Shown here: one piece after another, positions 10,076 through 13,773 of the stretch
Layout: every line of letters begins with the position of its first letter
How positions within the stretch are numbered: the stretch's first letter is position 1
Assembly (NCBI GenBank): GCA_018819225.1
Contig: JAHJQN010000008.1
Coordinates: forward strand, 64,001-128,000
Length of the DNA: 64,000 nucleotides
Direction: 5' to 3'
From: Candidatus Micrarchaeota archaeon
GTDB lineage: Archaea > Micrarchaeota > Micrarchaeia > Norongarragalinales > SBBD01
The notes under the pieces: generated by a model
Database searches by the model: none
What the model was told of the DNA's origin: nothing
Seen by the model: the letters and a program-made list of their open reading frames with translations, nothing else
Program-made: the position numbers and the translations under genes

Positions 10076-10639
10076 ATGCCAGAGCGAATGCAGGTAACTA
10101 TTCGAGAAGCCACTCGCGAAGACTACCCCGCCTTAGCAGAAATCAAGGCAAGAACATTCAATGAAGGACCTTGGAAAGCCGGAGTGACTGCTGAAAAATA
10201 TGTCGCGGGATACCGTAAAGGCGAGCGGAGGAGCACGCGCATGCGACTCGTCGCCGAACAGGACGGAAAAATCGTAGGATTGCTGGAAGGATTTCTATCG
10301 CGAAGAATCGTATTGGAACTACCGCCTCACAAGAGAAAGGATTTGCCGACGCGCGTATTCCATCTCTCCAATTTTATGGTGAACCCCGAAGTTCCGGTTC
10401 GTCAAAGGAATCAGGTATCCTATCCCTTGTGGAGACAATTCCTTAGGAAATTAGAAGGACATCGCGGAATACAAATGCGAACCCTCATGGCAAAAACTCA
10501 TCCGGAAAACTTGCCTGCTCTCCAAATATTTCTGCATAAAGACCCCAAAAGACCCCCGCGATTTCATCACGTTTATACCGGACCCAAGTGGCCGAATCGG
10601 AGGGGAACAAATGTAGCATACTTTGTTCGAGTAGTTTGA
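10076..10639 (+). CDS. Arg-rich orphan, GNAT-like
   Basis: IREATREDYPALAEI and LVAEQDGKIVG resemble the GNAT N-terminal half; acetyl-CoA motif A poorly conserved. Confidence 0.55.
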   Translation: MPERMQVTIREATREDYPALAEIKARTFNEGPWKAGVTAEKYVAGYRKGERRSTRMRLVAEQDGKIVGLLEGFLSRRIVLELPPHKRKDLPTRVFHLSNFMVNPEVPVRQRNQVSYPLWRQFLRKLEGHRGIQMRTLMAKTHPENLPALQIFLHKDPKRPPRFHHVYTGPKWPNRRGTNVAYFVRVV

Positions 10640-10824: not shown

Positions 10825-10840
10825 CCGATAAGTTTATATA
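10825..10840 (+). promoter_or_regulatory. Putative BRE/TATA promoter of the five-gene membrane operon
   Basis: CCGATAAG followed by TTTATATA (10833-10840), about 43 nt before ATG 10883, in an AT-rich intergenic region. Confidence 0.55.
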
Positions 10841-10882
10841 TCAGGATTACCATATTATGATGTAAGGCGAAACGTGAGAGTT

Positions 10883-11257
10883 ATGACCAAAGTATCATTG
10901 CAGCAACTAAAAAGTATGGCGTCTAGTCTCCAACAGGAGCCCGAAAAGAAAAGAGACTACCAAATGTTGCCCATGTTTCTTCCCGCAGATATCAGCGACA
11001 AAAAGGGAACGGGAGTCGTCAAAGTCGTAACACGTCAAGGATTCATGAACGAAACCATTGAGAACTGGGTGTTATACAACACGTACCGCGGAGCCACCGT
11101 ATCGCTTGGCGTGCTAGCCTTGATGACGTTCCCGGTCAACGTATACTTAAGCGCGTTATTCGGCATTGGCGCGGGATTCGCGTACGGAAAATTCAAGTTC
11201 AAGGACTTTATTATCAACAAGCAGCTCCGCCACAGGTGGCTGCTCGAAGGAACGTAG
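10883..11257 (+). CDS. Hypothetical 2-TM protein A (paralog of 11966..12505)
   Basis: MLPMFLP...KVVTRQGFM...YL.A.F...AG shared with 11966..12505. Confidence 0.75.
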   Translation: MTKVSLQQLKSMASSLQQEPEKKRDYQMLPMFLPADISDKKGTGVVKVVTRQGFMNETIENWVLYNTYRGATVSLGVLALMTFPVNVYLSALFGIGAGFAYGKFKFKDFIINKQLRHRWLLEGT

Positions 11258-11271
11258 AAAGGTAAGTACCA

Positions 11272-11655
11272 ATGAACGTCAAGCCACCCTTTCATCAAGA
11301 AACACGGGACACGGAACTCGTCGGCCTGAAAAGCGTTCAGGGCGGTAGTCCGAACCAGCAAGTCCCCATGAAGACCATGACCTACCTTCAGGTCGACCCG
11401 GAAGTCCGGGCCAACATGAGGGGCTCGACGCGTTGGGACTACGTATCCGAGTATATCGGCTACTGGATTGACAACAAACGTTTCTGGGTGCTCGCCGTAT
11501 TGTTTGTGGTAGCGGGAGTGCTGTTATTAGACGTATTCGCACCCGTTGCGTTACTCATGATCGCCGTCGGCGCCAAATACCGAAACATTGCATGGATGGA
11601 CAACTTCATTTACTCGAAGTTCGGAGAATACAGATCGCTCGTATTGGTGGACTAG
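11272..11655 (+). CDS. Hypothetical 2-TM protein B (paralog of 12544..12852)
   Basis: STRWDYVSEY...W....RF...AV....AG motif; AAGGT SD-like upstream. Confidence 0.75.
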   Translation: MNVKPPFHQETRDTELVGLKSVQGGSPNQQVPMKTMTYLQVDPEVRANMRGSTRWDYVSEYIGYWIDNKRFWVLAVLFVVAGVLLLDVFAPVALLMIAVGAKYRNIAWMDNFIYSKFGEYRSLVLVD

Positions 11656-11667
11656 AGGTAGAAAACA

Positions 11668-11961
11668 ATGACCACGATTTGGACTGGAATAAAGGACCCG
11701 AAACCCCGAAGCTGGGTGGGCGGTGAACCCGTCTTGACGACGGATGCCTACGCCCGCGGCGGACCCGTACGGGATTCCAGTTGGATCGTGCAGTTCATGA
11801 GCCTCCTTGAAGATTTCACGCCCATCAAACCCGTACGCGGAGACTTGAACAGCTTCGAGGACGCGATGTTTCGGGTAGGCGTATTCGGTTTGTCTCAGCG
11901 CCAAACCTTCCTGCTCATCACCATCGGACTCGTATACGCGTTATTCGTGATCCTCAGGTAA
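11668..11961 (+). CDS. Hypothetical single-TM protein C with PrgI/VirB3-like motif
   Basis: DLNSFED...FGLSQRQ followed by C-terminal TM; GAGGT SD upstream. Confidence 0.65.
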   Translation: MTTIWTGIKDPKPRSWVGGEPVLTTDAYARGGPVRDSSWIVQFMSLLEDFTPIKPVRGDLNSFEDAMFRVGVFGLSQRQTFLLITIGLVYALFVILR

Positions 11962-11965
11962 TCGC

Positions 11966-12505
11966 ATGAAAAACCCAACGCGCATGCACAGTTTGCAAGC
12001 CATTCGCAACGCAGTGCTCGATGGCAAGGCGCATCCGCATAGTGGACACAAGCACGACCCCTTTTACGGCAGCAAAGATCCCCTTCCGCATGTGGAAGGT
12101 TGTAACCCGCTCATGGACGATTACTTGCGTCCCTCGAGTACTCAGGCCGCAGACAAGATGCCCGAACAAGAAGGAAAACGCTTAATGCCCATGTACTTAC
12201 CCGTTTCTGCGAACAACATTCAAGGAGACGGAACGCCCGTCGAATCCGCGAAGCTGTGGACCAGGGGAAAGCTCATGGACGACGTCGTTAATGAAGACTA
12301 TAAGAACGGGTCAGTGGGAGCCATTTACCGCTCGTACTTCATGGCGTGGGTATGCGTCGGATTAACATTACTCGGCTTGACCATTAGTCCCTACCTGGCT
12401 GCTCCGTTCGCGTACATGGCCGGACAATACTGGAGCGACAAGGACTTGAGCGTCGGCTGGAGTATCCAGTGGTGGAAAGGAAAGACGATTACATACACGG
12501 TATAG
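11966..12505 (+). CDS. Hypothetical 2-TM protein A' with His-rich N-terminal extension
   Basis: LMPMYLP...KLWTRGKLM...YLAAPF...AG; HPHSGHKH extension. Confidence 0.75.
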   Translation: MKNPTRMHSLQAIRNAVLDGKAHPHSGHKHDPFYGSKDPLPHVEGCNPLMDDYLRPSSTQAADKMPEQEGKRLMPMYLPVSANNIQGDGTPVESAKLWTRGKLMDDVVNEDYKNGSVGAIYRSYFMAWVCVGLTLLGLTISPYLAAPFAYMAGQYWSDKDLSVGWSIQWWKGKTITYTV

Positions 12506-12543
12506 GGATAACGGTGAAAAATACAAGATAGTGGTGAATCAAT

Positions 12544-12852
12544 ATGACGGACAAAAACTACGTGGACCATGTACCGCCCGTGCAAATGACGTCGGTACTG
12601 GCCGACACGAAACAACCGTTCTTGAACATGTCGACGAGGTGGAACTACATCTCGCGCTATCTCGAGATCTGGAAGGAAGGCATCCGGTTCCGCGGGTTCG
12701 CCGTCGTCTCGTTCCTAGCCGGCCTCGTGCTCATCCTATCCATTCCGCTCATGGGCATTCTCGCGTTTGCGGCGGCCGCGTACTTCTGGGAGCTATACAA
12801 GTTCCGACGCCACCGTCTCGAAAGCCAGAGGTCCATCATGATCGGACACTAG
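12544..12852 (+). CDS. Hypothetical 2-TM protein B'
   Basis: STRWNYISRY...W....RF...AV....AG; GGTGA SD upstream. Confidence 0.75.
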   Translation: MTDKNYVDHVPPVQMTSVLADTKQPFLNMSTRWNYISRYLEIWKEGIRFRGFAVVSFLAGLVLILSIPLMGILAFAAAAYFWELYKFRRHRLESQRSIMIGH

Positions 12853-12881
12853 TCCGAACTCTTTTCTTTTTTCCAGAACAA

Positions 12882-12952: not shown

Positions 12953-13540
12953 TTAGATATCCCGAATGTCGTATAATTCCACAAAAGACGGGCGACGCTT
13001 GTAAGTAACAAAACGAAAGGTCATGGCACCCAAACGATTCCTGATCAAATCGCTATTCTTAACGTTTTGAATGAACCGAGTCGCATTACGGATGATGCGG
13101 ATAACTTCCGGAGATTTTCGCAACCTTGTTCTCAGTTCTCTTGAAAGGAATTGCACACGCATTCGTCCCCCCTCGTCAAATACAGGCAACATAAGACCTT
13201 CGATAGGTAAATCTGACTTCGATGGCTTACTCAATTTGATAAAGAATCTCAATGATGAATCTAGCTGAGGTGGCGCATCAATGATTATTTCACCATCAAC
13301 CAATTTATCTTCATCCGCCGGTGTCGGGTGCATGATGGCGATCACATGTTGCGGGTTACCTTCTTCGAGTTCACGCATCCCTTTCCGGAGTACGGCTCGA
13401 ACCAGTTGTTGTACTCGCGCATCCCGTGAGGTTCGCAGACGCAGGGAATCGGATCGTTCTCGTGTTTCCCGACGACTGGCCAAACCTTTCGGTGTCAGAC
13501 GTTGTTCCAAATCACGCAAAACAACTGTCGGTCGCGGCAT
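12953..13540 (-). CDS. Arg-rich orphan protein (start uncertain: 13540 ATG or 13627 TTG)
   Basis: Long ORF, MPRPTVVLR start, no recognisable motif. Confidence 0.55.
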   Translation of the reverse strand: MPRPTVVLRDLEQRLTPKGLASRRETRERSDSLRLRTSRDARVQQLVRAVLRKGMRELEEGNPQHVIAIMHPTPADEDKLVDGEIIIDAPPQLDSSLRFFIKLSKPSKSDLPIEGLMLPVFDEGGRMRVQFLSRELRTRLRKSPEVIRIIRNATRFIQNVKNSDLIRNRLGAMTFRFVTYKRRPSFVELYDIRDI

Positions 13541-13623
13541 GGTGGCCCAGTCAAATCGTCGGTAGTGTTTCGGTGCGGCTTCATCCAGTCTAAATAGAAG
13601 TCGCGGTTGTCCCTCGGCATGTT

Positions 13624-13773
13624 TCAAATTAAATTCTCGGGGTGGTGGTATACCCTATAGGGGGATATCCCATAACCTTTACCGTTCGCCGTCAGTTCTT
13701 CTAATTGATGCAATGCCCACAATTTGGTGACGTGCGGACGTTCCCGATTGAATTCCATGGGCTGCTTAGGCAT
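13624..13773 (-). CDS. Short orphan ORF (49 aa, MPKQPMEFNRER...), possibly a gene remnant
   Basis: Strong GGAGG SD before ATG 13773; manual translation. Confidence 0.4.
   Translation of the reverse strand: MPKQPMEFNRERPHVTKLWALHQLEELTANGKGYGISPYRVYHHPENLI

Follow-up and report, generated by a model that had tools for sequence, protein, structure and literature searches.

A five-gene operon of paralogous hairpin proteins from one order of Micrarchaeota, probably encoding a hetero-oligomeric membrane complex

Short hydrophobic hairpins of about 30–35 residues, with a helix breaker at the tip and both ends on the same side of the membrane, are known from Mic10 (the MICOS core), reticulon/REEP, caveolin and the N-terminal hairpin of stomatin, and these proteins oligomerise via glycine or small-residue faces. 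In this work we describe a locus which recalls them, found in a 64,000-nucleotide (nt) stretch of a Candidatus Micrarchaeota archaeon (assembly GCA_018819225.1, contig JAHJQN010000008.1, positions 64,001 to 128,000 of the forward strand; this whole stretch is called here the window, and positions are numbered from its first letter). The source genome assembly has 1.37 Mb and is 90% complete. The locus is an operon of five small co-oriented genes, g1 to g5, four of which encode paralogous hairpin proteins, and the five products probably form one hetero-oligomeric membrane complex. The likeness to the Mic10, reticulon/REEP, caveolin and stomatin hairpins concerns the possible way of working only, and it lies in the short hydrophobic hairpin, the breaker at its tip, the ends predicted to be on the same side and the small-residue face. 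Unlike in Mic10 (PF04418), which has a GxGxGxG pattern in its second helix, a small-xxx-small face extends here over four turns (residues 90/94/98/102 of g1 and 145/149/153/157 of g4), and the proteins do not match this Pfam family. The locus also differs from all these families in having four fixed paralogues and a tail-anchored fifth subunit, in belonging to an archaeon, and in lacking any sequence or profile similarity to them that we could find.

The operon was first pointed out in an earlier note made from the letters of this DNA, which took it for an A-B-C-A'-B' array, aligned g1 with g4 and g2 with g5, and suspected that all four might be one family. The five plus-strand open reading frames (ORFs) exist exactly where that note had placed them, at 10883–12852 (Table 1), and both pairings proved significant. 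BLASTP among the window proteins connected g1 with g4 (E 5e-8), g2 with g5 (E 2e-9) and g1 with g5 (E 0.007). For each gene a family alignment was built from relatives, and in profile-profile comparison the same two pairs were found at 4e-17 (g1 and g4) and 1e-17 (g2 and g5), while the two types were joined to each other at 5e-9 (g1 and g2) and 6e-8 (g4 and g5). Because these last matches link the A-type with the B-type profiles, g1, g2, g4 and g5 are, as judged from their profiles, a single superfamily, in which g1 and g4 make up type A and g2 and g5 type B. Just ahead of the first hydrophobic helix stands an arginine that all 128 hairpin sequences share without exception. For the g3 product, profile comparison with the hairpin superfamily gave no match.

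The history of the four paralogues was followed in a tree of 128 hairpin cores from the g1, g2, g4 and g5 families, with support given as the Shimodaira–Hasegawa-like approximate likelihood ratio test (SH-aLRT). The split of (g1+g4) from (g2+g5) received a value of 97, which bears out the pattern of a duplicated A-B pair. The separate clades of g2 (98) and g4 (99) are strongly supported, those of g1 (33) and of g5 together with its extra copies (66) weakly. Since each paralogue groups apart from the others and every such clade contains all sampled families, the duplication of the A-B pair appears to be older than the radiation of the order, with all copies retained afterwards. Additional g5-like copies, which fall with the g5 clade (SH-aLRT 66), were gained or lost in some families; in one family a further g5-like gene stands ahead of g4, and one genome has two g5 genes in tandem (Table 1). 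The operon offers a clean example of a hetero-oligomer, if it is one, evolving through duplication of an A-B gene pair.

The distribution of the operon is narrow and, within its range, nearly complete. The g4 family by itself occurs in 37 of the 41 genomes sampled from the same Micrarchaeota order, including all 21 of high quality, and the superfamily profile added three of the four g4-negative genomes, so that members are present in 40 of 41; the sole genome of the order without any member is 89% complete. In a phylum-wide sample 24 of 25 genomes of this order were positive and none of 176 genomes of other Micrarchaeota orders. An exhaustive search with hidden Markov models (HMMs) through 1.84 billion cluster representatives returned just 150 proteins, all of 53–235 amino acids (aa), and those of the weakest matches that were looked up still lay within arrays of small co-directional genes, which were full five-gene arrays on long contigs and partial ones on short contigs. 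The homologues, named solely "hypothetical protein", came by the source names seen in these searches from metagenome-assembled genomes of Candidatus Micrarchaeota or Micrarchaeia. The earlier guess that the DNA belongs to a symbiotic archaeon agrees with this origin, Micrarchaeota being DPANN archaea.

In about 30 loci from 11 families of the order the gene order is always 1-2-3-4-5, the most distant members included; the clustering seen in the window is hence conserved among relatives. The genes are often near-abutting or overlapping, with gaps of 1–10 nt in the tightest loci (for example L020), and inheritance across the order looks vertical. Because the order is kept while the neighbours differ between lineages, the five genes move as one block. 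DPANN genomes are strongly reduced, and a block that persists in nearly all sampled genomes of the order despite this reduction probably matters to the cell. We consider a single stoichiometric hetero-oligomer probable because the gene order is fixed, the spacing is tight, every paralogue has been retained, and dedicated packing faces, described below, are present.

The same data can be read otherwise, namely that the five proteins share a pathway or a condition without forming a stable complex and act as separate small membrane adaptors or regulators, each with its own cytoplasmic client. The most conserved parts are indeed linear motifs predicted to be cytoplasmic (the PMFLP-type motif and the C-terminal tails), each of which could bind another protein, and in some families additional g5-like copies have been gained or lost. 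However, the four paralogues and g3 are all strictly retained in a fixed arrangement throughout the order, in genes that often nearly abut or overlap, which is the usual signature of stoichiometric subunits, and the zipper faces point to packing of helix on helix, so we regard independent adaptors as distinctly unlikely.

No N-terminal hydrophobic segment or signal peptide is present in any of the five proteins. The hydrophobic windows of the hairpins span residues 70–101 of g1, 69–103 of g2, 123–145 of g4 and 49–84 of g5, and each hairpin protein has one uncharged stretch with family medians of 31–35 residues. Both g1 and g5 have net-positive flanks, those of g2 are neutral to weakly positive (the N-flank being neutral), and in g4 the C-flank is net-negative; the tips contain neither Lys nor Arg. 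Following the positive-inside rule, and as signal peptides are absent, we infer that the hairpins have both termini inside, with 3–5 residues at the outer face and almost all of the mass in the cytoplasm. An AlphaFold2 (AF2) model of g2, computed from its own family alignment, has helices at 54–84 and 90–117 with a predicted local distance difference test (pLDDT) value above 90, and their distal halves form the hydrophobic hairpin: a long helix coming from the cytoplasmic side runs into membrane arm 1 and, after a short tip, a second helix returns. The residue at the tip separates the two types, being Asn in the A-type (27/30 g1, 22/31 g4) and Pro in the B-type (27/30 g2, 32/37 g5). Helix 2 of the A-type carries small residues at i, i+4, i+8 and i+12 in 93–100% of sequences, which makes up the four-turn packing face.

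Invariant residues lie mostly outside the membrane arms, in the flanks that are predicted to be cytoplasmic. Conserved there are an Arg-containing aromatic helix before the hairpin, the PMFLP-type motif of the A-type and a strand-like C-terminal tail, which in g1, g2 and g5 includes another invariant Arg and in g4, in its place, invariant Trp165/Trp169. Along g1 a short N-terminal helix, PMFLP, invariant Arg51, tip Asn86, the zipper and the conserved C-terminal tail follow one another. In g2 invariant Arg54, Tyr57 and Glu60 precede the hairpin, the tip is Pro91, and Gly118 and Arg121 are invariant in the tail; the window protein carries R-W-D-Y, where the family consensus runs on as R-W-D-Y-L. 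The g4 protein begins with a His-rich linker, followed by PMYLP, invariant Arg100, the hairpin and its zipper, whereas g5 is marked by invariant Arg32 and Arg96 and tip Pro68. The g3 protein has a single membrane helix at its very C-terminus (79–97) and a conserved acidic LLED-like segment in the predicted cytoplasmic part; its AF2 model is of low confidence (pLDDT 67, predicted template modelling score 0.32). The g4 linker is rich in His in about half of the lineages: about 100 residues contain 6–14 His, and a stretch of 20 as many as 8, where the background of the genome is 2.1%. In some others (L016, L029) it lacks any His. It may be a lineage-variable metal-binding tract.

Several of these features would also suit a channel, and this is the main rival to our reading. 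In it the hairpins would cross the whole membrane and a small pseudo-symmetric pore would be built from the five subunits, serving as a channel or for uptake, perhaps of a divalent metal, with an architecture recalling the stalk helix and two-helix pore module of CorA or the zipper-packed pores of CTR1 and MscL. The g2 model, with its long helix passing straight from the cytoplasm into arm 1, the short tip and the return helix, is of this kind; the polar Asn at the outer tip of A-type hairpins, the small-xxx-small zippers, which are typical of tightly packed pore helices, and the His-rich linker of g4 fit it as well, and the best PDB sequence match, not significant (E 0.087), is the CTR1 copper channel. 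The likeness to CorA/Mrs2/ZntB (MIT superfamily) lies in the following: a long cytoplasmic helix continues into helix 1, the outer loop is very short, a helix returns, both termini are predicted inside, and the A-type Asn stands at the end of helix 1, usually after V, I, F or M, which recalls the G-M-N (or G-V/I-N) motif of CorA. The Gly of that motif is, however, not conserved and the B-type has Pro instead; the operon proteins are of 97–179 aa, lack the large cytoplasmic alpha/beta domain and do not match PF01544, and CorA itself is a homopentamer. Prokaryotic channels are in general homo-oligomers, not sets of four fixed paralogues with a fifth protein. The membrane arms are moreover short and almost free of polar residues, the His tract is missing in several lineages, and no transporter HMM was matched by the window proteins in Pfam or NCBIfam, nor by g5 members in Pfam. 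That the operon replaces CorA was considered and rejected, as a true CorA is encoded in this genome (E 1e-77) and in most genomes that carry the operon, which leaves no pattern of replacement. A channel role keeps some plausibility because of the conserved tip Asn and the stalk-like helix, but on the whole we find it unlikely.

Instead of a pore, we tentatively suggest by analogy a platform that organises or shapes the membrane in the manner of a wedge, because the hairpins are as short as those of the Mic10, reticulon, caveolin and stomatin type and selection falls mainly on the juxtamembrane collars. One transcript would supply the five subunits in equal amounts. With their helix-breaking Pro or Asn tip, the short hairpins would dip into the membrane or barely span it with both ends inside, and the second helices of the A-type would pack on their partners via the four-turn small-xxx-small face. 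A cytoplasmic collar would join the subunits to each other, made up of the aromatic-rich helices beside the hairpins, the invariant Arg next to the membrane and the strand-like C-terminal tails. Four short hairpins and one tail anchor would thus hold an assembly whose conserved surfaces lie on the cytoplasmic side.

Taken as a whole, the reading of g1–g5 as an obligate hetero-oligomeric, order-specific and almost wholly cytoplasm-facing membrane complex with a wedge or platform role has rather less than half of our confidence, and several points weigh against it. The case for assembly is made from gene order, spacing and co-inheritance, and co-inheritance means a shared function and does not necessarily imply a stable complex. 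The case for the wedge or platform comes solely from hairpin length and the pattern of conservation, and two helices of 15–16 residues could still span a thin membrane. No gene for a cytoplasmic partner is conserved beside the operon in the about 30 loci. Complex prediction on the cores of g1, g2, g4 and g5 (g5 as partner) gave scores of 0.00–0.01, which amounts to no verdict and was counted neither for nor against binding. A further step, that the operon encodes a lineage-defining, order-specific hetero-pentameric machine which shapes or gates the membrane, for example at the site of host contact or of division, and is tied to an episymbiotic lifestyle, appears to us improbable. The significance of the operon is limited, since small membrane proteins encoded in operons confined to one lineage are not rare and the organisms are uncultivated; it is, on the other hand, a compact target of about 630 residues in total which can be cloned as one piece and could show how ultrasmall cells organise their membrane.

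Transfer machines are expected in DPANN symbionts, and the earlier note had in this sense proposed a filament or contact structure for attachment to the host or transfer. One form of this reading would make the hairpins pilins like VirB2, CedA1 or TedC, and g3 a VirB3/PrgI-like component, of a type IV secretion system (T4SS) or a Ced- or Ted-like machine. Tandem small two-helix proteins beside a small one-helix protein do resemble VirB2/TrbC/CedA1/TedC with VirB3/PrgI, T4SS pilins likewise having two hydrophobic helices, and the first structural neighbour of a low-confidence ESM Atlas model of g2 (pLDDT 0.46) is a T4SS_pilin cluster (template modelling score, TM, 0.49). Against this, and unlike the pilins (VirB2/TrbC PF04956, T4SS_pilin PF18895, CedA1/TedC), the operon proteins have no leader peptide, their long N-terminal regions being hydrophilic and conserved and not of the cleaved-leader kind, and the positive charge is situated mostly in the flanks and not in the loop, which is predicted to be the opposite of the pilin topology, where the loop joining the helices is basic and the termini are outside. 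Because the uncharged hairpins are short, the flanks mostly positive and the tips limited to 3–5 residues, almost nothing would be exposed outside, and a filament or contact structure is for these reasons, and for the lack of signal peptides, not supported.

Searches for the machine and its parts gave the same answer. None of the 21 g3 and 37 g5 members matched VirB3, PrgI, TrbC or T4SS_pilin at E up to 10, the g3 homologues being negative for VirB3/PrgI/TcpE (PF05101, PF12666) at this threshold, and g1, g2 and g4 of the window had no pilin match in Pfam at E up to 1, though very remote homology is possible for such short hairpins. The GLS-RQ pattern of g3 is restricted to the closest relatives and is elsewhere GLP-HE, GIP-DE or LP-D. 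No VirB4-, HerA- or VirB6-like gene occurs within 4–8 kb of the operon in the about 30 loci, nor any other secretion-type gene near it, and the DUF87-type ATPase domains of this genome are only on other contigs. We therefore hold a secretion or transfer apparatus to be very improbable, and attachment or transfer is not supported as the function. As a separate observation, an open frame of 4205 aa outside the window (G000:C5, about 122,500–122,930; L042, L044) contains a DUF87/HerA-like P-loop domain (41.8 bits); giant proteins of this sort are seen in DPANN genomes.

The earlier statement that none of the proteins belongs to a recognised family held, as sequence, profile and fold libraries gave nothing specific. 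Pfam at E up to 1 returned for g1, g2 and g4 of the window only an irrelevant spectrin-repeat match to g1 (E 0.04), and for the five proteins neither Pfam nor NCBIfam nor PHROGs gave a meaningful match. Scans of the individual 21 g3 homologues and 37 g5 members against Pfam at E up to 10 gave no match by which to name them; DUF1634, matched by 6 of the 37 g5 members (best E 0.004), was set aside, since the matches are weak and look compositional. PDB sequences searched with the profiles of all five families yielded nothing below E 0.08. With the g2 AF2 model, Foldseek against the PDB found generic alpha-hairpin matches only, the best (E 0.28) being the ArnC/GtrB membrane hairpin, and a shape search in the ESM Atlas reached TM of at most 0.51. 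With the same model the top Z in VIA wide was 9.7, shared by ESCRT-III, PspA, ferritin-like and channel helices, which is below the meaningful level for helical models, and a look-up of g2 and g3 in the ESM protein atlas brought no usable match. The literature searched, PMC8204110 included, contained nothing on the hairpin family. Neither the family nor the operon is described in any source queried, with the caveat that distant homology is easily concealed in short hairpins.

Viral and defence connections were weighed on the same searches. Spindle-shaped archaeal viruses are known to have hydrophobic capsid proteins with two helices, and small paralogous hairpins might accordingly be domesticated structural proteins of a virus or a membrane vesicle, which they resemble in size and shape only. 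The operon, however, is present in a single copy with housekeeping genes around it (methionine aminopeptidase, Nudix, Trm5, CTP synthase), neither an integrase nor any other viral gene is nearby, no PHROG is matched, the viral structure library BFVD gave for the g2 model a best E of 0.1, which is not significant, and inheritance is apparently vertical; such an origin is hardly credible. Class II holins were rejected, as there is no PHROG match, no endolysin or phage genes lie nearby, and the operon is instead a conserved chromosomal core gene set. An anti-phage defence system was likewise rejected: the operon is near-universal in the order and apparently inherited vertically, unlike defence islands, and the only PADLOC match, of g2 to PDC-M10A, is marginal (E 0.001, 16.8 bits, 32 residues).

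The signals around the genes agree with those listed in the earlier note. Alignment of homologues favours the ATG at 10883 as the start of g1 over the GTG at 10874. The intergenic gaps are 14, 12, 4 and 38 nt, within the claimed 4–38 nt, and GGT-containing motifs of Shine–Dalgarno type do stand ahead of each of g2 to g5. The TATA box claimed upstream of g1 is present by sequence match as TTTATATA, a site also detected as an AT-rich hexamer in the consensus scan. Downstream, the stem-loop and T tract exist as described, but terminator-like matches are not enriched compared with shuffles, which weakens their value as a terminator. Together the promoter-, Shine–Dalgarno- and terminator-like signals are merely compatible with a single transcript of g1–g5.

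Table 1. Positions of the operon genes and associated features; entries beginning with L refer to loci of related genomes.
Feature	Position	Strand	Description
g1	10883-11257	+	124 aa; A-type hairpin subunit
g2	11272-11655	+	127 aa; B-type hairpin subunit
g3	11668-11961	+	97 aa; unrelated tail-anchored subunit
g4	11966-12505	+	179 aa; A'-type hairpin subunit
g5	12544-12852	+	102 aa; B'-type hairpin subunit
TATA-box-like TTTATATA	10833-10840	+	about 40 nt 5' of g1 start; candidate archaeal promoter; read directly
Stem-loop (12842-12857) then T-rich tract	12842-12875	+	overlaps g5 stop codon; candidate terminator; consensus match
His-rich g4 linker	12026-12058		g4 residues 21-31; same region in L004-L013, L023, L024, L027, L028, L030
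Extra g5-like gene ahead of g4	L023:45-353, L024:3617-3949, L026:3684-3971, L027:4487-4780, L031:4514-4792		one family
Tandem second g5	L028:3426-3713		one genome

Genes flanking the operon vary between lineages. In the window its neighbours are a methionine aminopeptidase and a Nudix/Trm5 pair. In 13 loci a CTP synthase gene (pyrG) follows shortly downstream of g5 on the same strand; the loci listed with pyrG downstream are L015, L016, L017, L019, L021-L023, L025-L029, L031, L037 and L040. A large S-layer-like gene (PF05124) is located upstream in six loci (L018, L020, L022, L030, L032, L033), on the opposite strand in four of them. Both genes are absent from these places in the window, and as functional links they were rejected, being cases of lineage-limited synteny. 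In locus L021 Hjc is directly upstream of the operon.

Some further frames were noticed close to the operon in the window. Immediately 5' of it, on the plus strand, lies an ORF of 187 aa (10076-10639) with no Pfam match at E ≤0.001. On the minus strand an ORF of 224 aa (12953-13627) is likewise without a Pfam match, and a 49-aa ORF (13624-13773) overlaps directly ahead of it in a different frame. An antisense ORF of 117 aa (11551-11904, minus strand) inside g2/g3 recurs in six related loci; it was not accepted as a gene, a shadow of the conserved plus-strand coding sequence being the best explanation.

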